Shown: piece after piece, positions 44,617 through 61,475 of the stretch
How positions within the stretch are numbered: position 1 is the stretch's first letter
Layout of the letters: each line of letters opens with the position of its first letter
Assembly: GCA_964448405.1 (NCBI GenBank)
Contig: CAYUVW010000001.1
Location: forward strand, 17,795 to 81,794
Source of the DNA: an uncultured Candidatus Peribacteria bacterium
GTDB lineage: Bacteria; Patescibacteriota; Gracilibacteria; Peribacterales; Peribacteraceae
DNA: 64,000 nt
Reading direction: 5' to 3'
The notes under the pieces: model-generated
Told to the model about the DNA's origin: nothing
Database searches by the model: none
Seen by the model: the letters and a program-made list of their open reading frames with translations, nothing else
Translations under genes and position numbers: made by a program

Positions 44617-44852
44617 GAAATCCGTTCAGTATACCTCATTTCAGTTTTTCTGGCTTGTTCGCGAGATTGACTGCATTACAAGAGTATTTTCTTTTATTAA
44701 TATTCGATTGCTCGAACATTCCAAAAGATTACTTCACGTCATTTAATAGATATTTGCAAATATAAAGCCCGGTCAAAACACTCGTTTTCTGGTATACTTA
44801 TAGGATTTTGTTCTCCCACAAACACCAATATCGGCACGCACATGGTATTGCG

Positions 44853-46880
44853 ATGAGTATCGCGAGCGTTCTGTTGTTCCTTGCGATGCGCGTACCTGCA
44901 TACGCAGCGAGTGCGTGGAACCCCACGTTGCTGGTGAACACCGAGGCGTTCCAGATCATCGATAATTCCGATACAGCGGCAACGCAATTAGAAATTCGTT
45001 TCGGCGACGTCGTAGGCCAGCGTCTGTTCTACGACCGCACCAACCTCCGCTTCCAGTTCACGCGTAACATCTTCGTTGCGGGTGATGTGACTGCCACCGG
45101 TTCCATTACCGCAATGCGCGTGTTGTCGGGCCAGTCTCTGCGCGTAAGCGATGGCGGCGCAGCTATCCATGGGCCCCTTGCCGTTACGGGCGCAATCCGC
45201 ACAGACAACAACCTGGTATTGAACGATGATGCCGACAGTAGCAATGTTGTACTGACGTTTGGTAGCGATGCTGTCAACGAATCGCTGACGTGGTTGAACA
45301 CCGCGGACAAATTCTATTTTTCAGATGATGTAGATGTGGGAGGCACGCTATCCGGTGCGTCCATCCACGCGGCTGGAGGGAATGTGCAGATCGCTGAAAA
45401 CGGCGGTAGCGTGTTCAATATTTACCGCAATCCAGACGCCGACTTCCAGGTCGACGCGCCTGCGACGCCGAAATTATTCTTCGTCAATTCTGGCACGCAG
45501 CGTGTGGGTGTTTTAAGTACAGTAACCGATCCAGAATACAAGTTTGACGTGTGGTGGAGCGGCGCGAGTGATTGGGTGGCAAAATTCGGAGGAACAGACG
45601 CCTCAGGCGATGCACAGACAAGGATTGGCCTCGGGAAAATCGGTGCATTTACCACTGGCGCACCGTCTCAGTTGTTGCTGAACCCTGACGGCGGAAACGT
45701 AGGGATTGGAGTGACGACACCGAAAGCCACGCTTGCAGTTCAAGGGATTATGTCCGGTGTCACTCTCTATTCCACCCGCTCATTCTCCGGTGCCGGTCTT
45801 ACAGATTGTGACATTGGCGCTTCCAATAAGCTTCTCTGGGATGCCACGACCGGCCGCTTCTCCTGTGGCACCGATCAAACCGGTGGCGGATCCGGTGGCA
45901 ACTGGTCCAATACGGGCTCATTGCAAGGCTTCTTCGATACCAAGTACGTGAATGTGTCCGGCGATACCATGACCGGCGCATTGGTCATCGACGTGAAAGA
46001 TACGACCACTGGCACCGGTCTTATTTTGCGCGAAAAAGCATACTTCGGCAGCGGCGCGGTCTTGTCTGGAGCCCTATTGCTTCAGGGTAACCAAAATTCC
46101 AGGATGCCGTCGCAAGCACCGGCCGGCATGTTGAAGACGTACTCACAAGATATCGCCAACAGACAAATGTTTTCCGCTCGCAGCCAGTTCGGTTCTGGGT
46201 ACAGCTTGCAGCCGGCGCTCTTTAGCAAAATGGTCATGATGCTTAGCACCGGAGGCGGCACGACGGTGAACGGCTATGGCACGACCGTCACGAACGACAC
46301 TACGGTTTCGCATCCGGCAGCCGACCAGACCTTCGGCTACATGACGAACTTCGCAACTGCTGCAACCCTGAACGATACCGCCGGAACCAGCTCGGTGAAC
46401 ACCACGTTCTTCCGCGGCTCTACCGGCGTTGCCAACGGCTTCTTCTTCCATGCTCGCGTGGGCGTGGTGGATGTTACGTCCATTCGCACGTTCGTCGGTT
46501 TGGCCAACCAAACCATTGCCACCATGGTGGGTAACGATAACCCGGCCGGACACACCATTGGCTTCCAGTTCTCCACCAACCGTGCGGATGCCAACTGGCA
46601 GTTCCAAACCAAAGACAACACCACGCAAAACGTTATCAATACCACCATTCCGTTTACAGCGAACCACGTCTACGATTTGTCGTTCTACTGCAGCAACACC
46701 TGCACGACCGTGTACTGGCAGGTGGATGACGTGACGTTTGGCACTACGGCAGAAGGTTCCACTGCATCCAACCTGCCGGGGGCGTCTACATCCCTGCGCC
46801 AAGTTCTTGGCGTTTCCGCGCTTACGGCGACTGCCAAAAATATTCGCATGCAACACGTCTATACCGAAGCCGACCGCTAA
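44853..46880 (+). CDS. secreted fibre-like surface protein A (shared N-terminal fibre module + C-terminal jelly-roll-like domain)
   Basis: Signal peptide ending AYA/AS. AWNPTLLVNTEAFQIID..., then LSGQSLRVSDGGAAIHGPLAVTGAIRTDNNLVLNDDADSSNVVLTFGSDAVNESLTWLNTADKFYFSDDVDVGGTLSG. This module is also present in 46884.. and 55500.. Confidence 0.75.
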   Translation: MSIASVLLFLAMRVPAYAASAWNPTLLVNTEAFQIIDNSDTAATQLEIRFGDVVGQRLFYDRTNLRFQFTRNIFVAGDVTATGSITAMRVLSGQSLRVSDGGAAIHGPLAVTGAIRTDNNLVLNDDADSSNVVLTFGSDAVNESLTWLNTADKFYFSDDVDVGGTLSGASIHAAGGNVQIAENGGSVFNIYRNPDADFQVDAPATPKLFFVNSGTQRVGVLSTVTDPEYKFDVWWSGASDWVAKFGGTDASGDAQTRIGLGKIGAFTTGAPSQLLLNPDGGNVGIGVTTPKATLAVQGIMSGVTLYSTRSFSGAGLTDCDIGASNKLLWDATTGRFSCGTDQTGGGSGGNWSNTGSLQGFFDTKYVNVSGDTMTGALVIDVKDTTTGTGLILREKAYFGSGAVLSGALLLQGNQNSRMPSQAPAGMLKTYSQDIANRQMFSARSQFGSGYSLQPALFSKMVMMLSTGGGTTVNGYGTTVTNDTTVSHPAADQTFGYMTNFATAATLNDTAGTSSVNTTFFRGSTGVANGFFFHARVGVVDVTSIRTFVGLANQTIATMVGNDNPAGHTIGFQFSTNRADANWQFQTKDNTTQNVINTTIPFTANHVYDLSFYCSNTCTTVYWQVDDVTFGTTAEGSTASNLPGASTSLRQVLGVSALTATAKNIRMQHVYTEADR

Positions 46881-46883
46881 ATC

Positions 46884-49800
46884 ATGCGCACCGCACAACG
46901 CATCATCGGCTCTCTGCTCCTGGTAGCCCTGCTACTGACTAACGTCGAGCCTGTCTTCGCCTCTACCTACGACAGCCTTACGGGTACCGCATTCGAGACG
47001 GTCGACGATGCTGGTCTAGGAGAAACAATTTATGCCCTGCGCTTTGGCAGTACCGTGCAACAGCAGCTCAGTTACAACACCACGCTCAATACGTTTATCT
47101 TTGCAGCGGGTCTAAAAGTCATCGGTACGCTGTCGGGCTCCAACTTGGTCATCGACCGCAATGCCAACCTTGGCGGAGCGCTGACTGCGACCGGCAATAT
47201 TCTCACAAAATCAACGCTTTCCGGACGCACGCTTATTATCTCCGGCGTGGCGTCATTCTCTGGCGCCGCTGTCTTTAAAAACGGCGTTACCCTGAAGAGT
47301 GGAACAGTCCTCTCTGGTCAGACGCTGCGCGTGTCCGGCAACTCCGATGTCCACGGTGCATTGTCTGTCACCGGAGCAGTACGTACAGACAGCAACCTCA
47401 CAATCAACGACGATGCCGATGCCAACAACGCAGTACTGACGTTCGGCAGTGACACCACCAACGAAACACTGACGTGGTTCAACTCGGCCGACCGATTCCA
47501 ATTCAGCGACGACGTCAGCATTGTCGGCAGCATTTCCGGTTCGTCATTGCGCGTAGACGGTGCCACCAGCATCTACGGCGCACTCGGCGCATCCGGCGCC
47601 ATTGTTAAAGGAACTGCTTCCGGACGCACATTACGCGTATCTGGCAATGCCGATATCCACGGCGCACTCGCGGTCACTGGTTCCATTGTTACCGATGGAG
47701 ACCTGACGTTGGGTGGCGACGACGCTGCAGCGAACGTGACGTTGACCTTCATGAATTCTGGTATCGACGAAACACTGACGTGGCTCGACACGACGAATAA
47801 ATTTTCGTTCTCCGATAACCTGGATATTATCGGCACCATCTCGGGTACTACCATTCGCAGCTGGGGCGCAATTGCCAACACCTTCTCCGGCTCGATTATC
47901 ACAGACTCTTCCTTCTCCGGTACCAGCTTCTTTGGCGCTGGTCTTGGGTCGTGCAGCAACGGTACCACCGACAAATTGCTCTATAACCCCTCCACAGGCA
48001 GATTCAGCTGTGGAACGGACCAGTCCGGCGGCTCGACCGGCGGAGGCGGCATTAGCTATGCGGCTGCCGAAGGCATGTTCGTCAACCAGGGCGGCGACAC
48101 CATGACCGGTGCGCTGAACGTAAACGTTACGAGCGCCGACGTCGTAAAAACGACCACTGGCGTCGCTAACGCTACGGATTTTTCCATTGCCGGCTCGACG
48201 TTGCTGAACGTGACGTCGGTCAACGACTCCCTTGTTATTAGCGATGGCACGGTGCCCAGTTCCGGACAAGGCACCATGGCCACATCCACTACCGTTACGT
48301 CCGCAAATGCCGGAGCCGGTGCGCATACCATTATTCGCGACGATGGAAAGTACGTCATTTTCCTTGGCAACAGCACGACGACGGTGAACATTTGGGATGG
48401 TATTGCCGGTGGAACTATGACCGCCGGAACCGCAACCAATGCCGCGCTTGGTGCTGGCGCTATTTCTCTGCGACGTTCGGACGGCAGGTACCTGGTGGTC
48501 CATGGCGGCGCAGCCACCACATCCACGCTGTACGATCCCTTTAACATCACCACTGTTGCCGGACCCACGCTGACCAGCTGTACTGCAACTACCGGAACCA
48601 ATGCATTCCTTGCGGCATCCGGTTCGTACGTCATCATGTGCGGAGGCTCCGGTAACTGGGGTTTGTATAACGGCACCACAAACATCTACAGCGCACAGGC
48701 TGCTGTGGGCGGTACATTCGCTGCTGGCGCACATGCCATTCAGCGCGACGACGGCAGCTTCCTTGTATTTGCCGGTGGCAACACCACAACGCACTGGCTG
48801 TACACACCGTACAACAACCAGTGGCAGCTGAACCCCATCACCACCAATGCTCCCACGATTACGACTGGAGCTTTTTCCATTCGTCGTCCGGACGGCATGT
48901 TCTTGGTAGTTCCGGGTGCTCAAAACAGCTCGTATATTTATGACCCGCGTCCCACAGCTGCGGATCGCGGAGCCGGTAGCATGACACAACAGTCCGGAGC
49001 GGGTTTTGGTCCAACCGTCGCACTTGCAGACGGTGCTCAGGCAATCTGGCGCCAGGACGGTAAGTATTTGGTGATGATCGGCGGCTCTACCACTACGAAC
49101 ATCCTGGATACCACGCGTACCGATGCCAACCAGTTCACGACCGGTCCAGCTATTCAAGGTGGTGCGCTCGGTGCCGGTGCGCACTCTTTCATCCGCACCG
49201 ATGGTAAAGTGCAAATTATCCGCGGAGGCGTCACCACAACTACAAGCACTTACGATATGGGTTACGTCGTCGGTGGGCCGTCTACCTCCACCGGCGCTAT
49301 TTACGAAAGCGAATGCATCACTTCTCCTTTGCTCGGTACGGGCTCGCGCATGGAATGGAACGTGAATGCCGAAGCCGGTTTAATGACCTTCCAAGTACGC
49401 ACTGGCAACGGCAGCTGTTCCGGTAACTACCGGGACATTCAAACGAACGGTGAGCTCGTCCGTCCCACTCCAGGCCATAACAGCGTCCAAATGCGGGTTA
49501 TTTTTAAGCGGACACTGCCGAAGTTCGTCGACCAAGAATGGGGTCTGCGCCGTGGCTTAAGCCAAACCCGCTACCGCCGTACGAACAAAGATCCCACGCT
49601 CTACGATATTGCCATTCGCAATACTGTGCTGCTGCACCGCACGCAGTTTGAATTCGGCGGATCAACAGATCCGTCGGGTCCGATTGCGGTGAATATCCAG
49701 AATGACCGCAATAAGAACCTGCAAATCGCGCTGGCGAACCAGGTGACGTACGGCACCACGTACAATACATCCCAGCAAGGTTACTATAACGGTGCGTTTA

Positions 49801-51740
49801 CCACACATCCGGTGCTGCCCACGGCCGCCAGTATTGGCACCATTGTGCTGAAGCGCCCGGATCGTAAATACATCATTCTGCCCGGTTCCGTAGCTTCCGG
49901 AGGAGCGGGTGTAGCCATGCTCTACGACGCCAACACCTATACGATCAACACCCAGGCAACAGCGCCCGCAACACGTACCTCCACCGGTGCGTTGGCATTC
50001 AAGCGTCCGGACGGGAAGTTCTTCATTGTCCATGGCGGCACCACTAAAACCACCACTATTTACGACCCCGTGGCAAATACCTACACGCCGGGTCCGCTGA
50101 TGACCCAGAACGTAGGAGAAGGTTCGCAGCCCATTCCGCTGCCGAACGGCAACGTGCTTATTCTGCATGGCGGCTTCCGTCGTACCACCACCATTTACAA
50201 CCCGTTCCAGAATACGACCATGACCGGTGCTCTTGCAACGAACATCATCGGTCGCGGTTCCATCGTCATCCCGCGTCCGAACGGCCAATATTTCATTGCT
50301 CCCGGCACCACGACGCATCTCTGTGCACCGCAAACGCCGACCATGCTTTACGATACGTATACGGGCATGTTCGTGAACAACAGTGCCGCGGCCATGGTGA
50401 CGGGTACCGGGCCCGGTGCGCTGACATTTGAGCGTAGCGACGGACAGTGGGTCATCATCAAGGGTGGAGGAACAACGAGCACGTGTGCCGGTCTGGCGAC
50501 TACGAACATCTATAACCCGTTCACCAATCAAATGGTCGTCGGTCCTGTGCCGACCGGTACCCGCTTTGGTACGCAGGCATTGCCTAGACCCGATGGCTCC
50601 TGGCTGATTGTGAACGGCAACGGTACGACTGCGTCCCAAATTTACTACGAGAAAACGGGTTTGTATTCCACCGGTCTTGCCGGACCCAACGGTATCGGTG
50701 CCTTCGTTGCAGGCCCCACGTTGCCCACCGCTACTGGTACGGGTTCAGTGGCGTTCCAGCGCGAAGATGGAAAGTTCGTCGTGCTTGCGGGCAGCAACAC
50801 GCCGGGCTCTGCCGGAACTACCACCGTCATGCAGTACGACGCCGGTTGGGTGACCAGCGGTTTCTATCGCAGCGAACACATCAATATTCCCAACTTAGAC
50901 AGTACGGCCACGCTCTCGTGGAAAGCATCACCAAGTTATGCCGGTATTTCTGCTGCTGTGCGGACCGGCACGTCGTCGTTGTCGTTGCAGGCAAACGACG
51001 AGCGTGAAATCAATCGTCCGGGCGACGCCATCAACCCGGGCGCCGGCCATACCTGGCTGCAGGTGACGTTCAACCTTGCACGCACCATTCCTACCTATAC
51101 GGGCATTGCTCAAGACGTCTGGTGGAACGGAGGAAGCACGAACCTCGTGACACAGCGCACCATCACCACGCCCACCATAACCGAGTTCTGGGTCGGCAAA
51201 GATGCCAATATGATTGACCTGAAAGCAGATAATCTTTCACTGTTCCGCGTGAACAGCAACGGCGATATTTACACCGGTAACAAAGGCTCGGTAAATACCG
51301 GAGGCGCCGACTTAGCAGAGCGCTATTCCTCGCCGGACGATCTGCAACCTGGCGAAGTGGTGACAATCGACTTCACCGACAGTCATGGCGTTCGTCGTTC
51401 TACCTCTGCGTATCAGCCTGAAGTGCTGGGTGTAGTCTCCACCAATCCCGGTTTCGTCGCCGGTGCGTTCACCAAGGGCTCGTACCCCATCGCTCTTGTC
51501 GGACGTGTTCCGGTAAAAGTAAGCCTGGAGAACGGCCCGATTCTTACGGGTGACCGCCTTATTGCCAGCAGTCTGCCCGGCTATGCAGCCAAGGCTCTGC
51601 GTGCAGGCCGCACGGTGGGCATGGCACTGGAGAGCGTAGACATTGCCAAAACAGAGCCCTGCGCCGCAGATAAACGCAAGCAGTGCGGCAGCGTGATGAT
51701 GTTCGTGAACCTGAGCGATTACGCCGGACCCGCAAAATAG
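46884..51740 (+). CDS. giant secreted protein (1618 aa): fibre modules, two Kelch-like propeller arrays, C-terminal fibre-end domain
   Basis: Starts 3 nt after gene A. Three copies of the fibre module, then ~8 plus ~7 repeats of the type GA.A..R.DGK.L...GG.T.TT..YDP..N. C-terminus GGADLAERY...VLGVVS.NPG...ALVGRVPVKV...GDRLIAS. Confidence 0.75.
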   Translation: MRTAQRIIGSLLLVALLLTNVEPVFASTYDSLTGTAFETVDDAGLGETIYALRFGSTVQQQLSYNTTLNTFIFAAGLKVIGTLSGSNLVIDRNANLGGALTATGNILTKSTLSGRTLIISGVASFSGAAVFKNGVTLKSGTVLSGQTLRVSGNSDVHGALSVTGAVRTDSNLTINDDADANNAVLTFGSDTTNETLTWFNSADRFQFSDDVSIVGSISGSSLRVDGATSIYGALGASGAIVKGTASGRTLRVSGNADIHGALAVTGSIVTDGDLTLGGDDAAANVTLTFMNSGIDETLTWLDTTNKFSFSDNLDIIGTISGTTIRSWGAIANTFSGSIITDSSFSGTSFFGAGLGSCSNGTTDKLLYNPSTGRFSCGTDQSGGSTGGGGISYAAAEGMFVNQGGDTMTGALNVNVTSADVVKTTTGVANATDFSIAGSTLLNVTSVNDSLVISDGTVPSSGQGTMATSTTVTSANAGAGAHTIIRDDGKYVIFLGNSTTTVNIWDGIAGGTMTAGTATNAALGAGAISLRRSDGRYLVVHGGAATTSTLYDPFNITTVAGPTLTSCTATTGTNAFLAASGSYVIMCGGSGNWGLYNGTTNIYSAQAAVGGTFAAGAHAIQRDDGSFLVFAGGNTTTHWLYTPYNNQWQLNPITTNAPTITTGAFSIRRPDGMFLVVPGAQNSSYIYDPRPTAADRGAGSMTQQSGAGFGPTVALADGAQAIWRQDGKYLVMIGGSTTTNILDTTRTDANQFTTGPAIQGGALGAGAHSFIRTDGKVQIIRGGVTTTTSTYDMGYVVGGPSTSTGAIYESECITSPLLGTGSRMEWNVNAEAGLMTFQVRTGNGSCSGNYRDIQTNGELVRPTPGHNSVQMRVIFKRTLPKFVDQEWGLRRGLSQTRYRRTNKDPTLYDIAIRNTVLLHRTQFEFGGSTDPSGPIAVNIQNDRNKNLQIALANQVTYGTTYNTSQQGYYNGAFTTHPVLPTAASIGTIVLKRPDRKYIILPGSVASGGAGVAMLYDANTYTINTQATAPATRTSTGALAFKRPDGKFFIVHGGTTKTTTIYDPVANTYTPGPLMTQNVGEGSQPIPLPNGNVLILHGGFRRTTTIYNPFQNTTMTGALATNIIGRGSIVIPRPNGQYFIAPGTTTHLCAPQTPTMLYDTYTGMFVNNSAAAMVTGTGPGALTFERSDGQWVIIKGGGTTSTCAGLATTNIYNPFTNQMVVGPVPTGTRFGTQALPRPDGSWLIVNGNGTTASQIYYEKTGLYSTGLAGPNGIGAFVAGPTLPTATGTGSVAFQREDGKFVVLAGSNTPGSAGTTTVMQYDAGWVTSGFYRSEHINIPNLDSTATLSWKASPSYAGISAAVRTGTSSLSLQANDEREINRPGDAINPGAGHTWLQVTFNLARTIPTYTGIAQDVWWNGGSTNLVTQRTITTPTITEFWVGKDANMIDLKADNLSLFRVNSNGDIYTGNKGSVNTGGADLAERYSSPDDLQPGEVVTIDFTDSHGVRRSTSAYQPEVLGVVSTNPGFVAGAFTKGSYPIALVGRVPVKVSLENGPILTGDRLIASSLPGYAAKALRAGRTVGMALESVDIAKTEPCAADKRKQCGSVMMFVNLSDYAGPAK

Positions 51741-51771
51741 CCCCCCATTTCCACGAAGCGGAAATGAGGGG
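51741..51771. terminator. hairpin between convergent giant genes
   Basis: CCCCCCATTTCC-ACGAAGC-GGAAATGAGGGG (one mismatch). Confidence 0.45.
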
Positions 51772-51783
51772 CGTGACGTGGTT

Positions 51784-54216
51784 CTAGTTTTCAAATTCCA
51801 AGATCAACTTCGGCGCCAGCGACAAATCGCCGACAGCGCCTTCCTTGGAATAGAATTTAATGTTTCCCGAGTGATTCTCGTGTGTTTTTTGGATCAGCCA
51901 TCCATTGTTTGCGCCTGCCAACACATCCTGCGTGACATCAAACGACACTTCACCGCTCATGCCATTGGTAATGGTCATCGTCGGCGCAGTGCGCGGCGCT
52001 ACAGAGGCATCGCCGCCATCCCAGTTGCCATTGCAATCTTTCTCGGTATTGGCAATCTCCGAATCCGTTGCGCATTTCCATGTCACACCGGGTCCGTTGC
52101 CGCGCGTGGAGTCGGCTTCCGGTACGTCCAGGTCTTTGCCATTACCTTCGGACCAACTCGAAAGCAATCGGCGCACCTCAATCGGACTGCCGCCGTTCTT
52201 CCAGTTCGACGGGGGCATGGAGCCAATGGTCAACACCAGCGTCGCCTTCTGCAGACCCGATAAATTTTGTCCGGCCAAATCGAATCCGACAAGCGAGCGA
52301 ATGTCGCCTTTTTTCCGTACGAGCAGCATGGGATTTATACCCTCATTCGTGTTCGACTTTCCCTCTCGCAAGAAGGCGTCTTGGGTCAGTGTGATCAGCC
52401 GGATGGTCCGACCGGGGCCAATGACCTGCTCCGTCGAACCGATATTCACCGTAATTTCATCGGGATTCGCTTCAGCGGCGGTGAATGCCGAGTAGCCGTC
52501 GAAGGCAAGAGTATTGCCCACATCGTAGCTGGTTGTGGTGGTGATGCCGTCGGGTGCTACGAAGGTGGTGTCGACGCTGCCACTTTTCACGCCGATGTGC
52601 GCGCTGCCGCACAGCACTTCAATCGCATCGCCGGATTCCAGCTGACTTTCGGCGAGTCCGTTGCACATGCTCACGTCGGCGGGCTCTTCCGCATCACCCA
52701 GCTTTGCCTCTATCACGATGCCGGCTGCAGATTCCTCCTCATCACTATCGACAATAATCAAGTTTTGATCAGCTCGATCCACGACCGTTCCGATGGTTGT
52801 GCCCTCATGCAGCATTGCATCACTGAATTCATTGGTGAAATCATCCGGAGCAATATCCACTTCGTTGTAAATACCGTCGCCGTCATTGTCTTGTTTGTAT
52901 TTCACAACGAACGCATCCGAACCGCCGCTGTTGGTTTGCCCTGGTAATGCGCCTAGGGTTTCTCCCATGGCGAAAATATGATGCAGCGTCGGGTCCAGAC
53001 CAACGGCACGCGCAGCGTCATCGAACGCGGTACCGAATTGCGTATACCAGCGCAACTGGCCATCGTAACTGTAGTACTGCAATAAAAAGGCATCGGTCCC
53101 GCCCGCGTTTGTATAGTTGGGCAAAGCGCCGGTAGTTGTACCGCTGACGTACGTCAGGCGATTCCCGGCAAACGCGGCACCACTGACGATGTCATCGCCG
53201 CTGGTGCCGAACTGCGTCAGCCATTCAGGCGAGGCGCCGATATTAATTGGGAAGCCGCGCAGAAAGGTGTCTGCGCCGCCGGCATTCGTAAAGCCCGGCA
53301 TGCTGCCATAGGTGGTTCCTGCAACCACGGCATCTTCTTCCAGGCTGTTCGCCGCCGCATTCGCTTCATCGTACTGCGCGGTGCCGAATTGTACAGTAAG
53401 GTTTTCATTGCCGGTCGTCACGTCGATGCGGCGCATGAATGCATCTGTGCCTCCCGCACTGACCTGGTCTGGCAAAGTACCTGCTGTGGCGCCCGAGACA
53501 ACCACCTCCGTTGAGGCACCGAAATCCACTCCGGTGGCCCAGTCGTCAGCATCCGACCCCCACTGATCGATCCAGCGGATGCTCAGATCCGACCCCAGTC
53601 GTGCCGTGAATGCGTCGAAGCCACCGATGTTCGTTTTCCCAGGAAACGCGCCGCTCGTTTTGCCGGCAATCAACGATCCCGCCTGTTCTCCGTCCGCGCC
53701 CAGCGCATAGTCGTCGCCATCGGTACCGAATTGCAACATGCTCGTGTGCTGCGGCTCCAGGCCCGGGTCGTATTTTCGTACAAAAATATCCACGCCGCCG
53801 GCGCTCGTTTGTCCTGCGAAGGTTGCGTTTGTGTAGCCGACGACGTGAATTCCCGTCTGCTCAATGGCAACGCCGGTCACCACGTCATCTCCGCTGGTGC
53901 CGAATTGCTCAACAAACAGAAGGTTGCCGTGGCGGTCGTATTTTCGGATCCAGCCATCGGTTCCACCTGCACTGCTCTGCCCCGAAAGCACCCCGTCCGT
54001 TGTACCGGCAACGAAAGTGTTGCCGTCGTCATCTACGGCACGGGCTGCCTCGTTGCTCGCCGTGGCGGTTCCGAACTGGCGTATCCAGGAGAGCTCTGGT
54101 GTTCCTGCTGCAAAGACATTCCCGGCTGGCAGCAGCATGCTCAGCGCGAGCGAGGCGGCGACAAGAACGCGCGAAGTGCGCTTTCTTGCCGTAACGACAT
54201 TTTTACTAGAAAACAT
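51784..54216 (-). CDS. secreted SBBP-type beta-propeller repeat protein with C-terminal carbohydrate-binding-like domains
   Basis: Signal peptide. About 8 repeats of FGT.GDD.(A/V).G.A......(V/I)(V/A)G.T.G.(L/F)PG....GG.D.F(V/L)(R/K). The tail contains AFLREG..NTNEG (the DNRLRE-type pattern as I recall it). Confidence 0.75.
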   Translation of the reverse strand: MFSSKNVVTARKRTSRVLVAASLALSMLLPAGNVFAAGTPELSWIRQFGTATASNEAARAVDDDGNTFVAGTTDGVLSGQSSAGGTDGWIRKYDRHGNLLFVEQFGTSGDDVVTGVAIEQTGIHVVGYTNATFAGQTSAGGVDIFVRKYDPGLEPQHTSMLQFGTDGDDYALGADGEQAGSLIAGKTSGAFPGKTNIGGFDAFTARLGSDLSIRWIDQWGSDADDWATGVDFGASTEVVVSGATAGTLPDQVSAGGTDAFMRRIDVTTGNENLTVQFGTAQYDEANAAANSLEEDAVVAGTTYGSMPGFTNAGGADTFLRGFPINIGASPEWLTQFGTSGDDIVSGAAFAGNRLTYVSGTTTGALPNYTNAGGTDAFLLQYYSYDGQLRWYTQFGTAFDDAARAVGLDPTLHHIFAMGETLGALPGQTNSGGSDAFVVKYKQDNDGDGIYNEVDIAPDDFTNEFSDAMLHEGTTIGTVVDRADQNLIIVDSDEEESAAGIVIEAKLGDAEEPADVSMCNGLAESQLESGDAIEVLCGSAHIGVKSGSVDTTFVAPDGITTTTSYDVGNTLAFDGYSAFTAAEANPDEITVNIGSTEQVIGPGRTIRLITLTQDAFLREGKSNTNEGINPMLLVRKKGDIRSLVGFDLAGQNLSGLQKATLVLTIGSMPPSNWKNGGSPIEVRRLLSSWSEGNGKDLDVPEADSTRGNGPGVTWKCATDSEIANTEKDCNGNWDGGDASVAPRTAPTMTITNGMSGEVSFDVTQDVLAGANNGWLIQKTHENHSGNIKFYSKEGAVGDLSLAPKLILEFEN

Positions 54217-54385
54217 AAAAGAAAAAAGTAAAAAAATAAAAAAGCAAAGTTAAACAGACAATACTAAGCTTTTTCTTTTAAAATAAACAAATGACGAACG
54301 ACATAAAAAGTATAATACGCAAATTCTACTTAACATTTTTGTTGCCTCAATGCGCTACTTGCGCAAGCGCTCCCTCTGGAGGATC

Positions 54386-55417
54386 ATGGGCGGTAACCTC
54401 CGTATGAACCGCCTCTTTTCGTCTCGCATTTTCATCGCCTGCGCTGCCGCACTTCTGGCGGGCTCCATCAGCGGGTTTGCGGTACTAAAATTGCACGGGC
54501 ATTTCGATGTGCGCTGCCTCCAGCGATTTCCATTACTCAGTCCGTTTGTTCCATGTGAATCGCAGGAGCCACTCGTGTTCATGCCTGAGTACGAAGAGTT
54601 TCAGGCCAACCTGAGCGATTGGATCGATACACAAAAACAGGCCGGCCTCATTACAGAGGGCGCCGTGTATTTCCGTGACCTTGTTGGCGGACCGTGGTTC
54701 GGTATTCGCGAAACAGCGGAATTCGTTCCTGCCAGCTTGTTTAAGGTACCGGTAATGATCGCCATCCTTCGTGCCTCGCAAGATGTCCCCGGACTTCTTG
54801 AACAGCAGGTGGTCATGTCCGGCTCCTATACCGGACTCATGAATGTCGAGCATCCCAGTGAGTCGCTGGAGTCGGGAGTTCCGTATACCGTCAATCAACT
54901 TCTGGAAAAGATGATCGTGTATTCGGACAATGCCTCGTCCGATTTACTGAAAGACGTGCTGCGTTCCATTGATGAAACAGGCAAGTCCGTCGAAACCATT
55001 TATCGCCAGCTTGGTATGTATTCCGCGGCCACTGAACATCGTTTGTCCGTGAAGAACTATTCATCACTGTTCCGCGTGTTGTTTAACGGCAGGTATTTGA
55101 GCTACGAAATGTCCGAGAAGGCGTTGGAATTACTCAGTCGCTCAGCCTTTACCGATGCGCTGGTTGCAGGAATTCCTAAGGGGACAAAAGTCGCACATAA
55201 ATTCGGCATTCGCGATGTTCCAGGCGAAGATATAAAGCAATTCCACGATTGCGGGATTGTGTACTATCCCAAGCGTCCGTACCTCTTGTGTATTATGACT
55301 CGAGCATCGGATACGGAGAGTGCCATTATGTTCATTCGCGAGGTGTCGCGACGCGTGTATAAGCAAGTCGATGACCGCATGAGTGCGAATGAAGAGTCAT
55401 TGTACGACATGCGGTAA
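54386..55417 (+). CDS. class A beta-lactamase-like serine hydrolase
   Basis: SxxK (ASLFKVP), SDN (YSDNASS) and a KTG-position HKFG. N-terminal TM/signal. Start at 54386 (GGAGG upstream) or 54404. Confidence 0.7.
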   Translation: MGGNLRMNRLFSSRIFIACAAALLAGSISGFAVLKLHGHFDVRCLQRFPLLSPFVPCESQEPLVFMPEYEEFQANLSDWIDTQKQAGLITEGAVYFRDLVGGPWFGIRETAEFVPASLFKVPVMIAILRASQDVPGLLEQQVVMSGSYTGLMNVEHPSESLESGVPYTVNQLLEKMIVYSDNASSDLLKDVLRSIDETGKSVETIYRQLGMYSAATEHRLSVKNYSSLFRVLFNGRYLSYEMSEKALELLSRSAFTDALVAGIPKGTKVAHKFGIRDVPGEDIKQFHDCGIVYYPKRPYLLCIMTRASDTESAIMFIREVSRRVYKQVDDRMSANEESLYDMR

Positions 55418-55435
55418 ACAACACGTAAAAGAAAA

Positions 55436-55457
55436 ACCCCTCTTGGTGCAGAGGGGT
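55436..55457. terminator. bidirectional intrinsic terminator
   Basis: ACCCCTCT-TGGTGC-AGAGGGGT, with an A run upstream and a T-rich tract downstream, between convergent genes. Confidence 0.65.
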
Positions 55458-55499
55458 TGTTCTCGTTTGAAGAAAGTGTTCGCGAGTGTTCGGTCAGGC

Positions 55500-57152
55500 T
55501 TACGGGAGCGTCGATTCGAAGTTCAGGTTAATGAATCCGGCTGCGGCATAGGCGTTGGCGGTGTTGTTTGCGGCCAGCTTCACGTAGAGGGTGACGTAGC
55601 CCTTGGGCGTCCAGGTGCCTCCGGTTTCAGGTCCTTTGATACTTGCGGTGGTAAAGGAGGTGCTGGCGAGGTTATCTGCGCCTGTCAGGTCGCGCATGAC
55701 TCCTGCGGTGTCGCGGATACGAAGGGTCACGTGGTTGTTGGCGGTAGAGGCGACACCGGTCTTGTAGCGCAGTTCAATCGGCTTGGTCACGTCCCATGTG
55801 CTGAAGTTGTCCGGCAGGCGGACGCGGACGGAGATCCAGTAGTCGTTCAAGGCGGCCTTGGTGGAGGTCCACTTGAAGGTGTTGTCCAGGCCGGTCGTGC
55901 CACCCGACAAGGACATTTGGCCTACGAACACGGCACCGCTGGCGAAGTAGATTGCGCCTGGGTATTCGGGGTGCAGCGAGAGAATCTGTCCGCTACCGTT
56001 GCTGCCTGCACCAGTCTGGTCCGTAGCACATTCGAACTTACCGGTTGCCGAGTTGTAGACGACCTTCTGGTTCGTTCCGTTACACGTTGCCAGTCCAAAG
56101 CCCTGGATCGTGGAGCCGGACAAGGCGCCTTCGATCGTGAGCGAGCCGGACATAGTGTGCGTACCGTTGCCGGAAATCTTGAGCGTGGTGCCCGAAATGG
56201 TGCCGTTCACGTCCAAGTCATCGGACAGGTAGAACTTATCGGTGGTATCGAGCCAGGTGAATGTTTCGTCGGTACCCGAATTCATGAAGGTCAATGACAC
56301 GTCCGCTGCAGCGTCATCGCCACCCAACGTGATGTTGCCCTCCGTAAGGATGGAACCCGTCACGGCAAGTGAGCCATTGATGTCTGCGTTACCAGACACA
56401 CGCAATGTGGTGCCGGACAAGACCGTCTTGGCGGTAATGGTCGATACACCAACTATGGCGCCAGTGACGGTAAGCGTTCCGCCCACAGTGGCGTTACGAT
56501 CCACGTTCAGAGCCGAGCCGGAAATGGTTCCCAGCACGGAAATACCCCTGCTGAACTGGAACTTTTGAGCGGAGTTCAAGAAGGTGATGCTTTGGTTGCC
56601 CGAGGTGTTACCGAACGTCAACACGGCGTTGTTCGAGTCGGCATCATCATTAATAGTAATATTTCCATCCGTGCGGATCGCTCCAGAAGCAGTCAGCGCT
56701 CCCTGGACGTCTGCATTACCGGACACACGCAACGTGGTACCGGACAACACCGTCTTCGCAGTAATAGTCGACATACCCAGCACGGCGCCGGTGACAGTCA
56801 ACCTTCCACCCACGGTGGCGTTGCGATCAACGTTCAAGTTGGAACCCGACAGTGTGCCAAGAACACTCAAGCCCGCGGAGAATTGGAATTTTCCGTTGGT
56901 CAGGTATTTCAAGGTGATACCGCTGCTTCCGAAGCGCAGCTCGATGTCGGTGCTGCCGTCTCCACCATCAATTTGCTGGAACGATTCCGTGTTCACCAGC
57001 AATGTTGGTGCCCAGCTGCCCGCGGCCGACGCCAGTGGCGCCAGTGCAGCGAAAGCAATCGAACCAAACGCGATTCCAGCAATGAATTTGCTGGCCCGTG
57101 CGTAGCTGCGGGGAAGTGTGTATGTGAACATAAATATTTGTTGGTATCGCAT
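55500..57152 (-). CDS. secreted fibre-like surface protein C (paralog of A)
   Basis: SWAPTLLVNTESFQQIDGGDG and three fibre modules (LSGTTLRVSGNADVQGALTASGAIRTDGNITINDDADSNNAVLTFG...). The C-terminal beta-sandwich-like domain is shared with 57341..59647. Confidence 0.75.
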   Translation of the reverse strand: MRYQQIFMFTYTLPRSYARASKFIAGIAFGSIAFAALAPLASAAGSWAPTLLVNTESFQQIDGGDGSTDIELRFGSSGITLKYLTNGKFQFSAGLSVLGTLSGSNLNVDRNATVGGRLTVTGAVLGMSTITAKTVLSGTTLRVSGNADVQGALTASGAIRTDGNITINDDADSNNAVLTFGNTSGNQSITFLNSAQKFQFSRGISVLGTISGSALNVDRNATVGGTLTVTGAIVGVSTITAKTVLSGTTLRVSGNADINGSLAVTGSILTEGNITLGGDDAAADVSLTFMNSGTDETFTWLDTTDKFYLSDDLDVNGTISGTTLKISGNGTHTMSGSLTIEGALSGSTIQGFGLATCNGTNQKVVYNSATGKFECATDQTGAGSNGSGQILSLHPEYPGAIYFASGAVFVGQMSLSGGTTGLDNTFKWTSTKAALNDYWISVRVRLPDNFSTWDVTKPIELRYKTGVASTANNHVTLRIRDTAGVMRDLTGADNLASTSFTTASIKGPETGGTWTPKGYVTLYVKLAANNTANAYAAAGFINLNFESTLP

Positions 57153-57340
57153 TACTATAGCACACAGAGAGAAGAAGGTGTAGAGCGTTCATCTTGACCA
57201 TTATGTATTTTGTGGCGTGATATATTCGCTCAGAAAAGTGGTTTGAAGTGGATCTTTGCTTATATAAATGCCAAAAAGTCGACCGCGGCAAAAATTGGAC
57301 AAAATAGAATAATGTATTCCTTATAGTATAAAGGAAGCGC

Positions 57341-59647
57341 TTACTCTCGTCGGAGCTCCACGTACTGCATTTTCAGGCTGCCGATATGCACCTGGAAGTT
57401 GTCTTTTGCGGACGCGCGGATGCGGATCAAGAAGTCTTGTCCCGGAGTCCATGTTCCACCGCTGCCGATGTCGATACCGCTGGTGGTCCAGCTGGTATTC
57501 GCAAGGTTGGAAACAGAGCCGGACAAGGTGACCGGTACGCCGTTGGTATCGTAGACTTGAATGTCCACTTTGTTCGCGGCATTGCTGGCATTGGTCGTGC
57601 GGTAATCCAGGCTCAGCGGATTTTCGGCACCACCCGCCTTCCAGCGGACGAAGTTCGGCGACAGATGTGCCTTCAACAAGATGTCGTAGTCCTGCAGCAC
57701 TGGGCGCGTGCTCGACCAATCATAGAAGTTTATCTTTGTTGTATTGTCGTGACTGACCTGCAACTGACCGATGTTATCGGTACCGTCGCCCTGGTAGCTG
57801 GCATGTTCGAACTCCGGATTGAAGACGGTTTGCACCGTGGTTTCACGGTCGTCACTATTCAGGATGCGACGATCGGTGATGGTCAGCACGTTCGAGCCGT
57901 TGGTCGTTACTTCGGCAACCGGAATGTACGACTCGTCGGTCGGGTAGCCGAGCGTAGTCACAGTCAGTCCTCCGGAGCCGAAGAACACGTAGCTGGAGGT
58001 GCTGGCGGGAACAGCCACGCCGCTGGCGCCTGCATAGTTGGTGACGACTCCATTCAAGCGGTAGCTTCCACCGGAAACCATAATCGTCAGTCCGGCACCG
58101 GCGTATGCTTTCAGTGCGCCGGTGGAACTCTGCAGCGAACCCAGGTTGACGCCGTTCACCAGACCGGTGACGGTCAAGTCTCCTTGAATGCGCACATCGT
58201 CATTGAAGTTGAACCAGCCGTTCACGCTGTCGTAGCTCAGTTGCTTGGACAGCGCGTTACCGAATTGCAGCACGACTTCGGTGGCGGCGCTGTCGTCGTT
58301 GTTCAGTACGAAGGTGTTTGCATTCGTGCCGCCGGGGATGGTGCTCTTGGGCAGCAAGCCGCTCAGGTCCAACACCGGAATATTGAAGCTGCCGGTTCCA
58401 GTGTCGTGCTGGTCGAGCAACTCGGCGTTGTTTGCAAACGGTACGGTGGTCACGCGCGAGCGATCCAACGCAGTATCGCTCGGGTTGGTGTCCAGCAACT
58501 CATACGAGGTATCCGGATCGCCGGCCATCTTCACCTCTACTTGCAGGTGGAGGTTCTTCAGGGTGTCCACCGGCAGCGTGCTGAAGTCGATGAGCGGCGT
58601 GACTTTGCCGAGTTCAACCGAGAAGTAACCCTGTGCGGTCGGCGTGACGGTTTGTACTTCGTTCCAGCTGACATAGTTGGTGGCACTCGTATTGATTGCG
58701 CCGCCGCCCGTAAGATCCGAAGTCACGAAGTCGGAGCTCTTCCAGTAGCTGAAGCGAATGGTGACCGCCGTCGTAATAGGTGTGCCGCTGGCGTTCAAGA
58801 GGTTGCCCTTATAGGTGCTCAAGAGCGGAGTGGTCGTGTTGGCGGCGTGTGCGGTGAACGGCATGCCGAGGAGCAGCAGTCCCAGCGCAAGCGAGAACAG
58901 TGCCAGCAACACGCTCATGGCAACCGTGCGATTGCGCTTCTTTTTCAAGAACGTGCGGATGCGCTTGTGCAGCACGTACGTCATGGCGCTGCTGCCGGCA
59001 ATCGCAATGCAGAACAGTGAGATCCACATCCAGACCCATGTGGCGGTTTCCGTTGCTGCACCGTGCAGCGTTTCTGCAGGAGGACAGAGCGGATCAACCG
59101 CACCGAAGTACCGCAGATTCAGTGCCGTACCGTCGATCGACGACGTATCGTATGTCGTTTCCGTCCATGCCGAGCTCGACAGATCGGTCGTTGTTTCTTC
59201 GGCCGATGCGCTGCTTGCCGAACTTGCAATCGGATACGTCTGCGGTACACGCGGGCCACGAGAACTCGTGCTGCTCGAATGCGTGCTTGCACTTGCACTG
59301 CTTGCCGCAGGATGCGGTCGGGAACCGCCGCCGCTCGTACCGGCATTACCTCCGGTGCTTCCGCCGCCGGTCGTGCCACCCGCGCCGGTCGACGAACTGC
59401 TGCTTGTGCCGGCAGTCGTTGCGGGTCCGGTCGTCAGGATGAAGTTGTTTCCAGTGAGGACCGAATCGTTCCACGTCACGCCGTTGTTCATGTGCTGGAA
59501 CGACGTGCTTACGCCCGGATCTCCGGTAGCGTTGTCGCCCATGCTTTCTTGCAGCTGGAACGACGTGCTCACCTGAGCCATGGCGACCGGTGCGCTCAGA
59601 GTGAGCGCCAGGAGTGCCAAGCCGATGCTGGTGACGAAGCGTCGCAT
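57341..59647 (-). CDS. surface protein D: signal peptide, Ser/Thr/Gly-rich domain, internal TM hairpin, fibre module, shared C-terminal domain
   Basis: See finding at 58844-59038. The C-terminal ~170 aa parallel those of protein C (..GGTWTP(G/K)..). Confidence 0.7.
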   Translation of the reverse strand: MRRFVTSIGLALLALTLSAPVAMAQVSTSFQLQESMGDNATGDPGVSTSFQHMNNGVTWNDSVLTGNNFILTTGPATTAGTSSSSSTGAGGTTGGGSTGGNAGTSGGGSRPHPAASSASASTHSSSTSSRGPRVPQTYPIASSASSASAEETTTDLSSSAWTETTYDTSSIDGTALNLRYFGAVDPLCPPAETLHGAATETATWVWMWISLFCIAIAGSSAMTYVLHKRIRTFLKKKRNRTVAMSVLLALFSLALGLLLLGMPFTAHAANTTTPLLSTYKGNLLNASGTPITTAVTIRFSYWKSSDFVTSDLTGGGAINTSATNYVSWNEVQTVTPTAQGYFSVELGKVTPLIDFSTLPVDTLKNLHLQVEVKMAGDPDTSYELLDTNPSDTALDRSRVTTVPFANNAELLDQHDTGTGSFNIPVLDLSGLLPKSTIPGGTNANTFVLNNDDSAATEVVLQFGNALSKQLSYDSVNGWFNFNDDVRIQGDLTVTGLVNGVNLGSLQSSTGALKAYAGAGLTIMVSGGSYRLNGVVTNYAGASGVAVPASTSSYVFFGSGGLTVTTLGYPTDESYIPVAEVTTNGSNVLTITDRRILNSDDRETTVQTVFNPEFEHASYQGDGTDNIGQLQVSHDNTTKINFYDWSSTRPVLQDYDILLKAHLSPNFVRWKAGGAENPLSLDYRTTNASNAANKVDIQVYDTNGVPVTLSGSVSNLANTSWTTSGIDIGSGGTWTPGQDFLIRIRASAKDNFQVHIGSLKMQYVELRRE

Positions 59648-59651
59648 GGGG

Positions 59652-60239
59652 CTACGCGGTCGGCAGGGGAGGAAGTGGGAGCATGGAGAGCGGGTCCTCG
59701 TCAGTTTCCGAAGCAGACGCAGGAGTGAGCTGCGTCGTGTTGATTGCCGTGGTGGTGTCCTGCTCCGTGCTCGTTACGATTTCCGTTTCGCCACGCTTCT
59801 GCATGTGCGATGCCTTTTCACCGAAGAACAATTTGTGACGAGCGATAACGCGGCCGACGGTCGACACAGACACTTCGATGCCGTAGATCTCGCGCAGCAT
59901 GGCGTGAATGCCGACCTTGCCCGTGGTCGGGTGAGCCATGCGCAGTTCGCGAATGGCGGCTACCGTTCGGGCATCGGTTTCGGGCGCGCGTACGGCATGC
60001 GGCCGACGCGACGTTTCCTCCAGGCTCGACACGTTCTGCGCGTCGAAGCGATTCCACCAACGCATGAACGTCGAGCGTGCAATGCCGAAGTGTCGGCATG
60101 CCAAGCTGACGTTGTTGTCATGTTCGAGTGTGTACAAAAACCACTTCAAACGCTGCACCGCTCCGGCACTCAATTCCAACTCGACGGCCTGCTTCAGCAG
60201 GCGTCGTACATCGGCCAATCGTGTATCGCGGGCGGACAT
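59652..60239 (-). CDS. transposase-derived helix-turn-helix protein (IS481-type N-terminus, no catalytic core)
   Basis: CRHFGIARSTFMRWWNRF...LEETSRRPH...IRELR...VSVSTVGRVIARH matches the N-terminal DNA-binding region of IS481-type transposases. The ORF ends after 195 aa without a DDE domain. Its stop is 4 nt before the start of protein D. Confidence 0.7.
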   Translation of the reverse strand: MSARDTRLADVRRLLKQAVELELSAGAVQRLKWFLYTLEHDNNVSLACRHFGIARSTFMRWWNRFDAQNVSSLEETSRRPHAVRAPETDARTVAAIRELRMAHPTTGKVGIHAMLREIYGIEVSVSTVGRVIARHKLFFGEKASHMQKRGETEIVTSTEQDTTTAINTTQLTPASASETDEDPLSMLPLPPLPTA

Positions 60240-60409: not shown

Positions 60410-61400
60410 TTCGCATCTGTTTGAACTTTGCCCTAGTCACGGCCAATCGTTTTCAAGACCACAATCGCGAATGGGCTGACGTTGCTTTGGCTTCAAAAAT
60501 CGCATCTGTCTGATCTTCTCCCATCCCGCATTGTCGCCGCCGTGGAGGGAGGAATTTGGCGCTGCATGGTACCGAAAACCGTATGCAGATCTGCCTGAAC
60601 TTTCGTCAGGAATCCAGGTCCTGTGATCACCTTCCGCTGCTTGAAAACCGCATTGCGATCGACAGGGGTGAGCGCGCATCTGTTCGAGCTTCTGCCTGTT
60701 TTGGCTGTGGACATCATCGAATGACGGCTTCAGCGCGAAACAAAGTCTTCTGCGTAGCGCATGTATTCGAGCTTGTGACGTGCTGTCAGTATTTTGTTTT
60801 TTAAAAATTATTTATAGTTTTTGTCAATGAAGCATGTGCATATGAACTTTGGCCTGTTCGTCGGCTTTTGTTCAAAAAATCACACTGCATTCTGAGTCGT
60901 AGCGATTGCCTGTGATCTTCTCGCAATCCACCAAGAGCATTCTTGCCTTTTTCGCTGCAGCAAGGGCTCGGCATCTCTTTGAACTTGGGCCTGCACAAGC
61001 CGTAGGAGCGGCGCTTCATCGGGCTTCAGGGACGAGGGTATTGCAGCGTTCTGCTTGGCATTGTTTCAGATGTGTGTGAGCTTCTTTTTCCCGCAGCGAG
61101 ACGGATGCTTTTTTGCTATTGTTTCGCCAGTCGACTGCAGCGCATGCATCGGAACTGAGGGCTTGAGCATTGACTGAAATGTAAAAAATACTTGTCGTAA
61201 CAAAAATGACGGAAACTCTGTGCATCGGAGAGCAGAGGTGTTGCAGAAGTGTTCGAACTTACGACGTCTGCATGGGCTCTTTTCCAGACCATGCAAATTA
61301 TTGACGCATGCAGCACGTGAACGAGAGCCCTTTCTGAAGCCAAAAATAGCAATTGATGTCGCATGCGTGCATGGTTGTACGCATGTGATTGAACTTATGG
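60410..61400 (+). repeat. degenerate ~85-bp direct repeat tract (>=11 units) with the 19-nt core GCATCTGTTYGARCTTNNG
   Basis: Cores read at 60423, 60512, 60597, 60686, 60769, 60844, 60914, 60981, 61078, 61255 and 61391, all in the same orientation. The region is visibly lower in GC and has no credible ORF. Confidence 0.75.
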
Positions 61401-61475
61401 CATACAGATGCGATTCGCTTGTGGTTCGATCACGGATTTTGTACCATTGCGAATACTCGTTTCCTACGTTTACAC

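Follow-up and report, generated by a model that had tools for sequence, protein, structure and literature searches.

We analysed a 64,000-nt stretch of DNA from an uncultured, ultra-small Candidatus Peribacteria bacterium, hereafter the window, and in particular a group of genes for exported proteins, A to D, situated between 44.8 and 59.6 kb of this stretch. The window corresponds to C1:17795-81794 in a genome of 1.46 Mb that is distributed over 59 contigs and is 95.8% complete; labels for contigs (C1, C25, C52), genomes (G001-G003) and loci (L001-L008) are codes of this analysis. Source names of the close homologues include Candidatus Peribacteraceae, Peribacteria and Peribacterales. A preliminary description had portrayed the segment as an envelope island of five giant secreted proteins sharing recombinable fibre modules. 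The open reading frames (ORFs) were found where this description had placed them, with the possible exception of the start of A. The size implied by "giant" fits only B, and with a GC content of ~56-60% there is no compositional island at 44.8-59.6 kb.

Gene A (44853..46880, plus strand, 675 aa; an alternative TTG start lies at 44808) is preceded by a 36% GC intergenic region (44617..44852) separating it from the divergent M23 peptidase gene and presumed to contain the A-B promoter. Gene B (46884..51740, plus strand, 1618 aa) begins 3 nt past A. It converges with a gene for an SBBP-type beta-propeller protein with a C-terminal DNRLRE domain (51784..54216, minus strand, 810 aa; exported, and outside the fibre family); the gap between the two holds a terminator-like hairpin (51740..51772, 15-bp stem, -20.6 kcal/mol). 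A 23% GC region with sigma-70-like matches on both strands (54217..54349) divides the SBBP gene from a divergent gene, bla (54350..55417, plus strand), for a membrane-anchored class-A beta-lactamase-fold protein of 355 aa with SxxK and SDN motifs. Past bla come a second hairpin in a convergent gap (55435..55458, bidirectional and terminator-like, ~-21 kcal/mol), gene C (55500..57152, minus strand, 550 aa), a 37% GC gap where the C promoter probably lies (57153..57340) and gene D (57341..59647, minus strand, 768 aa). The gene ending 4 nt ahead of D encodes a transposase-derived helix-turn-helix (HTH) protein with an IS481-type N-terminus and no DDE core (59652..60239, minus strand, 195 aa); divergent from it is the gene for a protein with three SLH domains (61389..62540, plus strand). 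The AT-rich intergenic tracts noted earlier (23-37% GC, against 56% in the genes) and the strong hairpins in both convergent gaps (about -21 kcal/mol each) are indeed present. Transcription probably proceeds in five units: A-B, SBBP, bla, HTH-D and C.

Pairwise BLASTP comparisons link A to B (34% identity, E 4e-53), A to C (36%, E 3e-49) and B to C (44%, E 6e-110); on this basis A, B and C are clear paralogues. C and D are related at 25% identity (E 3e-22), chiefly via the C-terminal domain, and the matches of A and B to D are weaker (E 4e-6 to 3e-9). A profile hidden Markov model (HMM) was built on the five full modules of A, B and C. It recovers these at E values of 1e-45 to 1e-48, at residues 90-182 of A (45120-45398), 141-232 and 242-335 of B (47304-47579 and 47607-47888) and 133-224 and 242-335 of C (56481-56756 and 56148-56429). 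The leaders match the same profile as half-modules, at 2e-12 in C (residues 44-115; 56808-57023), 6.5e-7 in B (residues 51-95) and 2e-3 in A (residues 20-85; 44910-45107), and a stretch within the ectodomain of D (residues 444-496; 58160-58318) matches at 1.4e-6. These matches set the number of full modules at one in A, two in B and two in C, each accompanied by a leader half-module, with one partial copy in D. Profile comparison, the test proposed for the modules, thus finds them related. They form a real family, as claimed, with a length of ~92 residues (~75 in the preliminary description) and copy numbers of 1, 2 and 2; the single degenerate copy ascribed to D is there as well. No significant match to the module HMM was found in the SBBP, bla or HTH proteins, nor does SBBP match A-D by BLASTP at E<=1e-3. 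Accordingly, the sharing of modules extends to A, B, C and, by one degenerate copy, D, but not to the fifth protein, SBBP.

The leader is near-invariant, with the consensus SSW.PTLLVNTE.F..ID.GDG..IELRFG, and is itself half a module. The module HMM bears out the homology of the leaders of A, B and C, although that of B is divergent: it lacks W.PTLLVNTE, its match is confined to its second half, and a variant, STYDS.T.TAF.TV, is retained in B orthologues. The module shows a short-period, beta-helix-like sequence pattern and gives weak matches to PF04519. Scans of A-D with Pfam and NCBIfam yielded no match at E<=0.01, so these proteins carry no recognised dockerin or SLH domain; with the isolated end domains, Pfam gave nothing at E<=10. 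At the DNA level, modules of A and B are 72% identical (45183-45314 versus 47367-47498), in line with the ~70% estimated by eye for this pair. Modules of B and C, which are inverted relative to each other, reach 77% (47619-47851 versus 56417-56185), and the best tract in the region, between the two modules of C, shows 82% identity over 131 nt. The longest exact repeat is 17 nt, which makes it doubtful that the likeness is "enough for homologous recombination" of the RecA type in the present-day cell.

Signal peptides were assessed by rule of thumb, as a hydrophobic segment followed by an AxA-type site. A, B, C and SBBP each have a single N-terminal hydrophobic segment and then an AxA-like site (AYA/AS, VFA/ST, ASA/AG and VFA/AG, respectively), and D too carries a predicted signal peptide with an AxA-type site; predicted signal peptides span residues 1-18 in A, 1-26 in B, 1-43 in C and 1-24 in D. 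By this reading, an export signal is present on all five large proteins, as a secreted character would entail. D, however, is not a free fibre. Its signal peptide is followed by a low-complexity, variable part rich in Ser, Thr and Gly, a first transmembrane (TM) segment, a basic loop (KRIRTFLKKKR) and a second TM segment. The resulting hairpin (residues 205-260; 58868-59035) occurs at equivalent positions in five further genomes from several genera (six in all), which argues for a membrane-anchored protein with two external parts. Conservation of the hairpin also led us to drop the alternatives that D represents two fused ORFs, or a sorting signal followed by a second signal peptide. A resemblance, seen by eye, of the domain past the hairpin to the "INFQGKL" N-terminal domain of other giants of the candidate phyla radiation (CPR) is not significant (BLASTP against P0225, E 0.33). 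Elsewhere in the genome lie genes for one cohesin, one dockerin-bearing ORF and two sortases (C4:28372-28716, C27:1447-1665, C4:11022-11453 and C10:10797-11201); located on C4, C10 and C27, they could anchor other surface proteins.

Beyond the module, A contains a Cys-knot (C319-C338; 45807-45878), a GDTMTG motif at residue 370 and a C-terminal domain of 256 residues, CT_A (residues 420-675; 46110-46877). CT_A matches phrog_13925 at 3.8e-10. Along almost its entire length it resembles hypothetical proteins encoded by phages of Microcystis and Pseudanabaena (25-29% identity), and over 66% of the domain one of Flavobacterium phage 11b (32% identity). In phage Mel-JY03 a CT_A homologue is encoded between a lysozyme and a glycerophosphodiester phosphodiesterase gene. 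A sequence search of the PDB with A found nothing.

In C, the modules are followed by a Cys-knot (residues 357-379) and a jelly-roll domain, CT_C (residues 385-550; 55503-56000), a type that recurs at the C-terminus of D (residues 609-768; 57344-57823). Across 37 C-type proteins the leader and CT_C are most conserved and the middle is variable. An AlphaFold2 (AF2) model of C, made from this 37-sequence alignment, has a mean predicted local distance difference test score (pLDDT) of 74.5, with the modules at ~80-88. Foldseek matches of this model in the PDB are to the lambda gpJ fibre, the HFTV1 turret and the Bdellovibrio fibre Bd2133 (E 4e-4 to 9e-4; for Bd2133, E 8.5e-4 with a probability of just 0.51). 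In BFVD there are 83 matches at E<=1e-3, and most of the top-ranking ones that bear a name are tail fibres; phrog_4549, a "tail fiber protein", is matched at 4.5e-6. The fold of CT_C (the C-terminal 165 residues) resembles the jelly-rolls of CBM36, CBM22 and domain III of Cry toxins. With a profile of C searched against all PDB chains, a lone unrelated tail fibre was obtained (E 0.095) and no MAT chain, and tblastn of whole C against 50,697 phage records gave zero matches. C-terminal domains thus do alternate between members, as first described: C and D share the CT_C jelly-roll, and A and B end differently, each in a domain with phage homologues.

B is the most elaborate member. Its two modules are followed by a Cys-knot (residues 357-380), a GDTMTG motif (residue 404) and two Kelch-like propeller regions, with a beta-sandwich after each (the second at 50835-51143). 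The propellers match the Kelch structure PDB 6ryw at 1.8e-4, which is the sole PDB sequence match for B. The C-terminal domain, CT_B (residues 1455-1618; 51246-51737; ~165 aa), starts with GGADLAERY and contains a D-L-A-E motif (D1476-E1479; 51309-51320). The second sandwich and CT_B form a cassette (residues 1318-1618; 50835-51737) that is found, at 50-60% identity, in "hypothetical" proteins of 900-2800 aa from other CPR: Parcubacteria, Minisyncoccia, Paceibacterota, Saccharibacteria, Gottesmanbacteria and Nomurabacteria. Its conservation across CPR phyla is comparable to that of housekeeping proteins, on hundreds of otherwise unrelated giants, and none of 120 listed proteins has a Pfam match attributable to the cassette region. 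B and its orthologues terminate ~143 residues past the motif, with most other CPR proteins running 300-500 residues further. The cassette exists in two forms, one short and terminal, the other long; lacking a Pfam model, it merits a family definition of its own.

Within the cassette, D-L-A-E-x-Y and the downstream blocks GVVS..PGF, GRVP and GD.L show little or no variation among 23 aligned sequences; D1476-L-A-E1479 is invariant in all of these, and paralogues from the same genome have ADYAE(W/R)F. D-x-x-E may correspond to the autocleavage (catalytic) site of phi29 gp12. A model of the cassette (pLDDT 65.7) retrieved, by Foldseek, the base of the phi29 head fibre gp8.5 and the capsid cement proteins of Sf11, TW1 and BB1 (probability 1.0, E ~1e-2, target TM 0.47-0.58). 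Two paralogues in the same genome approach known families from below their cut-offs: the C52 protein resembles PF11962, Peptidase_G2 (24.4 bits against a cut-off of 25, E 2.3e-5), and the C25 protein PF09956, Phage_cement_2 (20.6 bits against 24, E 5.8e-4). There is no Pfam match to Peptidase_S74 in A-D, their end domains or the paralogues. In tblastn, CT_B shares 45% identity with the C-terminal end of PA5oct gp359, which mass spectrometry has confirmed as a structural component of the virion and whose gene adjoins tail-fibre genes. The cassette could, speculatively, be a lineage-wide assembly and processing device of phage derivation that serves the display of surface fibres, a self-cleaving trimerisation module defining a Patescibacteria-specific class of host-recognition fibres, with the Peribacteria leader as a second, clade-specific docking tag of this display system; we consider this rather unlikely and offer it as a tentative idea.

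The family to which A-D belong is large. A profile of the leader retrieved 732 clusters of 1.84 billion at E<=1e-3 (373 at 1e-10), almost always with the match at residues ~30-120, directly past the signal peptide, in proteins listed at 106-6674 aa. Members (E<=1e-5) occur in 26 of 41 related genomes, with 8-13 matching places per genome inside the genus and up to 32 elsewhere. Among the relatives listed, the leader-plus-module N-terminus is almost confined to those named Peribacteria or Peregrinibacteria. When ~280 relatives were annotated with the domains of the window, they displayed a leader and variable strings of modules and Cys-knots joined to CT_C, CT_A, CT_B or a fourth end type, CT_E, and to payloads of the propeller or LVIVD kind; the C type is the most frequent. 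The genome itself encodes three further members, one just past the window (gene E, C1:84393-85661) and two giants on C25 and C52. The giants (C25:3-4142 and C52:3-3362) comprise an LVIVD propeller, an ADYAE domain, a helical region, a terminal domain and a poly-Ser tail, and are cut by the contig ends; the assembly probably breaks in these repeated giant genes. Gene E is followed by two highly self-similar NHL-repeat propeller proteins (C1:85693-91700; 609 and ~1393 aa) that include a masked run of N, and NHL giants likewise come after the D-C pair in L008. In the literature on CPR fibre proteins, only work on type IV pili was found. The Peribacteria genome paper mentions "large extracellular proteins", strain variation and possible roles in attachment, and does not describe the family itself (PMC4736985).

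The order M23-A-B-SBBP-bla-C-D-HTH-(gap)-SLH is also present in G003 (locus L001) and G001 (approximately L002), and G002 has the same order minus SBBP. A complete genome of another lineage keeps SLH/HTH/D/C/bla/bla/LVIVD-type B/ATP-grasp/M23/HD. A more distant genome still keeps SLH/D/C, which is the furthest-conserved part of the locus. The locus is flanked by housekeeping genes. With an order constant in four genomes of the genus, a core shared with other genera and a housekeeping setting, the term "island" had to be abandoned.

Conservation of order coexists with uneven divergence. Compared to G003, nucleotide identity is 88-90% in the flanks, 85% in A and 76% in the block at 47.3-56.9 kb; D and HTH are ~89-98% identical in 60-codon windows. 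Synonymous divergence (dS) and the ratio of nonsynonymous to synonymous divergence (dN/dS) were calculated by the Nei-Gojobori method with G003 as the reference. dS is 0.17 for D and HTH, 0.28-0.58 for SLH, C, M23, HD, x464 and one further flank gene, 0.84 for a second flank gene, 1.0 for A, 1.1 for B, 1.3 for SBBP and 3.2 for bla, with dN/dS between 0.03 and 0.14 in all genes, indicative of purifying selection. A 60-codon sliding profile displays steps within A and again where B begins; over the opening 60 codons of B, third positions differ by only 0.10. High dS, with dN/dS low in every gene, indicates that blocks of the locus differ in ancestry through allelic replacement by inter-lineage recombination, and does not speak for diversifying selection. 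Positive selection behind the fast-diverging middle of the locus is ruled out, since dS is raised instead of dN/dS. The preliminary description would have given way to an invariant locus devoid of mosaic structure among relatives; the range in dS from 0.17 to 3.2 against this congener reveals just such a mosaic. D and HTH are closer to G003 than are the flanking housekeeping genes (dS 0.3-0.8), which suggests a recent segment exchange or sweep.

Modules have changed in number and kind. Orthologues have one or two full modules in A, two or three in B and two or three in C. In a tree of modules, the subtype "GGDDAA...LTFMNSG" forms a clade (support 100/99) comprising the last module of B and C here and in G003 and the first module of C and A in G001, and the module of A in G002 groups with B modules (support 96/95). 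Module junctions suggest chimeras made by unequal exchange. Judged from these comparisons, domain shuffling has indeed taken place in the course of evolution. DNA tracts shared between paralogues are at best 72-76% identical in three other loci, where intragenic tandem modules reach up to ~81%; near-identical tracts are lacking in all four loci (maximum ~81%), and recent gene conversion is not in evidence. A diversity-generating retroelement (DGR) was ruled out, as reverse transcriptase (PF00078) is absent from the 95.8%-complete genome. The lack of near-identical tracts, the fixed gene order and the missing reverse transcriptase indicate that shuffling has been an evolutionary process, not current switching. 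The claim of domain shuffling therefore survives for the history of the family, as seen in the domain combinations of ~280 relatives and in the changes of module number and subtype between orthologues, but not for present-day exchange, given the 72-82% identity, the 17-nt repeat, the absence of reverse transcriptase and the purifying selection.

Among the neighbouring genes, the SBBP gene has a DNRLRE domain at 44.5 bits (cut-off 34) and a partial match to the SBBP lipoprotein model (79.5 against 400). This gene is missing from the otherwise syntenic locus of the congener G002 (L006, G002:C1:24001-44000). The bla product scores 120 bits with PF13354 (cut-off 22) and 61.5 against 200 with NCBIfam bla_class_A; passing the former and failing the latter, an equivalog model, it has a beta-lactamase/PBP fold and may or may not act as a beta-lactamase. 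Although other genera retain bla in this locus (with two copies in L007), it is the most diverged gene relative to G003 (62% amino acid identity, dS 3.2); D, by contrast, has 96% amino acid identity (dS 0.17). Three HTH paralogues each adjoin a fibre gene: the one in the window at 59652-60239, one at C1:83771-84517, which overlaps the start of fibre gene E by ~11 nt, and one at C52:3967-4587, which lies at the contig end, ~600 nt 3' of the fibre gene on C52. The C1:83771-84517 paralogue ends in a TM helix (WILSTIAVSAVLLAMAIGY) and may thus be a membrane-tethered regulator. Outside the locus, a SAM riboswitch (RF00162) at window 28301-28409 (minus strand) scores 44.6 bits, barely above the gathering score.

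Altogether, exported proteins encoded beside a three-SLH-domain protein make this a cell-envelope locus, as originally proposed. We think it probable that this conserved chromosomal locus encodes a repertoire of phage-fibre-like surface adhesins, analogous to the MAT fibres of Bdellovibrio; trimeric state, polarity, cleavage and adhesin function are the parts that we infer. Following Sec export, the proteins would form elongated, probably trimeric surface fibres. Their common layout consists of a signal peptide, the leader, variable modules with Cys-knot/GDTMTG units, an optional payload (such as propellers) and a C-terminal domain that can be of several types. Through the shared leader the fibres would be docked to a common envelope element, candidates for which are the hairpin-anchored D and the SLH protein, leaving the distal domains to bind ligands on partner cells or substrates that vary from one domain type to another. 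The last ~145 residues of B may serve as an assembly (auto-chaperone) domain, possibly cleaved off. Attachment to partners is a plausible candidate role.

Several observations weigh against this interpretation. TM-scores to known fibres are low (0.1-0.2). Such values are expected, however, if monomer models are flexible and the proteins, as is probable, oligomeric; the fold evidence is therefore suggestive and supportive, not decisive. CT_B of B itself has no Pfam match at E<=10, so that its link to Peptidase_G2 rests on the sub-cut-off scores of the paralogues. Anchoring of A-D by cohesin-dockerin pairing or by sortase was considered and rejected, these proteins having no Pfam match at E<=0.01 and the corresponding genes being on other contigs. 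Finally, CT_C is strongly conserved, which would be no less fitting for a domain with a structural or anchoring function than for a tip that recognises hosts.

This last point leads to the main rival, which is that C, D and the SLH protein are structural envelope subunits of the S-layer type, building a regular surface layer in which CT_C binds the cell's own wall polymer and the modules act as spacers. Conservation of SLH-D-C furthest across genera, the near-invariance of the leader and CT_C, purifying selection in all genes, the membrane anchor of D and the abundance of C-type proteins in the family would all be accommodated, and S-layer genes have been reported in the Peribacteria genome paper (PMC4736985). 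However, Pfam finds no SLH domain in A-D, the three being in the neighbour at 61389-62540, nor any other recognised wall-binding domain; the many alternative distal domains and propeller payloads are typical of binding repertoires; and it is with phage fibres and receptor-binding regions, rather than with the lattice proteins of S-layers, that links in fold and sequence exist. We regard this rival as possible but rather unlikely, adhesin and structural roles not being mutually exclusive.

Two further proposals fare less well. Modules with ~70-80% identity, those of B and C inverted, might let the cell reshuffle or invert its fibre genes at appreciable frequency and so alter surface specificity. 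Repetition of modules within and between genes, some inverted, the differences in module number between orthologues, the occurrence of one subtype in B and C here and in A and C in G001 and the stepwise identity to G003 along the locus would all agree with such a scheme; we nonetheless find it improbable, as exact repeats do not exceed 17 nt and identity peaks at 82% over a tract of 131 nt, the three other loci are no more alike (72-76% between paralogues, ~81% between tandem modules), the four congeners do not differ in the order or orientation of the genes, the lack of reverse transcriptase precludes a DGR and Pfam/NCBIfam scans detected no recombinase in the locus, the HTH protein being without a catalytic core. 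A prophage or tailocin-like remnant, with fibre genes left behind in the chromosome, could account for the phage homologues of CT_A and CT_B and the fibre-like fold matches of C. It is contradicted by the scan of the window genes from 42.6 to 63.9 kb, which gave no match to capsid, portal, terminase, sheath, baseplate or integrase families, by the predicted Sec signal peptide on every fibre protein, by a position between housekeeping genes with the same order across genera and by the failure of whole C to match any of 50,697 phage records in tblastn; we give it hardly any credence.

The prevailing view of Patescibacteria (CPR) is that they live attached to other microbes. To our knowledge, the molecules with which they recognise partners are almost unknown, type IV pili aside, and Peribacteria have no cultured member. 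The locus supplies specific, conserved candidates whose domain boundaries are clear, among them a leader found in ~700 protein clusters and a pan-CPR C-terminal cassette. The analysis also corrects the automatic labels "bactofilin" and "DUF342 acyltransferase" attached to the family. The module scores 19.7 bits with the bactofilin model PF04519, below the cut-off of 27.9, and this sub-threshold match explains the database labels "bactofilin CcmA" and "DUF342". Bactofilins are cytoplasmic polymers, whereas the Peribacteria proteins carry signal peptides and are hundreds of residues longer; the bactofilin annotation is a misnomer.

Parallels exist with the fibres of phages. The GDTMTG motif and the fibre-like fold are common to phage tail fibres and the Peribacteria proteins. 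According to the paper on T5 pb1 (PMC4690869), the intramolecular chaperone of phi29 gp12 is cleaved and its body is made of beta-strands. B and two paralogues end in, or contain, a domain that resembles such chaperones (PF11962) below the cut-off in a paralogue and carries an A-D-(L/Y)-A-E motif followed by GVVS..PGF and GRVPVKV blocks; the fold search with B, however, returns cement and gp8.5-base proteins instead of a solved gp12 chaperone. Moreover, phage fibres with chaperones (phi29 gp12; K1F and T5 pb1 with Peptidase_S74) are virion parts, unlike the Peribacteria proteins, which are chromosomally encoded and Sec-exported. The giants of other Patescibacteria share the sandwich and CT_B cassette of B at 50-60% identity. 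In those proteins the cassette is usually followed by a helical region, a terminal domain and a Ser/Thr/Pro tail, whereas B stops short.

The MAT fibres of Bdellovibrio have an invariable, cell-proximal N-terminus and swappable C-terminal tips, and fall into chaperone-bearing and chaperone-free subfamilies (Caulton et al. 2024, PMC10769870). They constitute a multi-paralogue set of exported, phage-like fibres in a bacterium living on other bacteria, and a repertoire of this sort is likewise proposed for Peribacteria. Their plan joins an N-terminal part that does not vary to a repetitive, beta-rich shaft and interchangeable C-terminal tips. It recurs across the Peribacteria paralogues, and in both families some members carry, and others lack, a C-terminal domain of the phage chaperone type, which in Peribacteria is putative. 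There are differences. No sequence homology to MAT fibres is detectable with the C profile, and the leader is not the same; the chaperone-like domain of Peribacteria is G2/cement-like, not S74; the cell that makes the fibres is a CPR bacterium of Gram-positive-like type that also encodes an SLH protein; and the trimeric state and surface location, demonstrated for MAT fibres, are predicted features of the Peribacteria proteins. As membership in the MAT family is unsupported by sequence, the Peribacteria family is best described as an analogue. The analogy suggests convergent recruitment of phage fibre parts by unrelated bacteria that live on bacteria.

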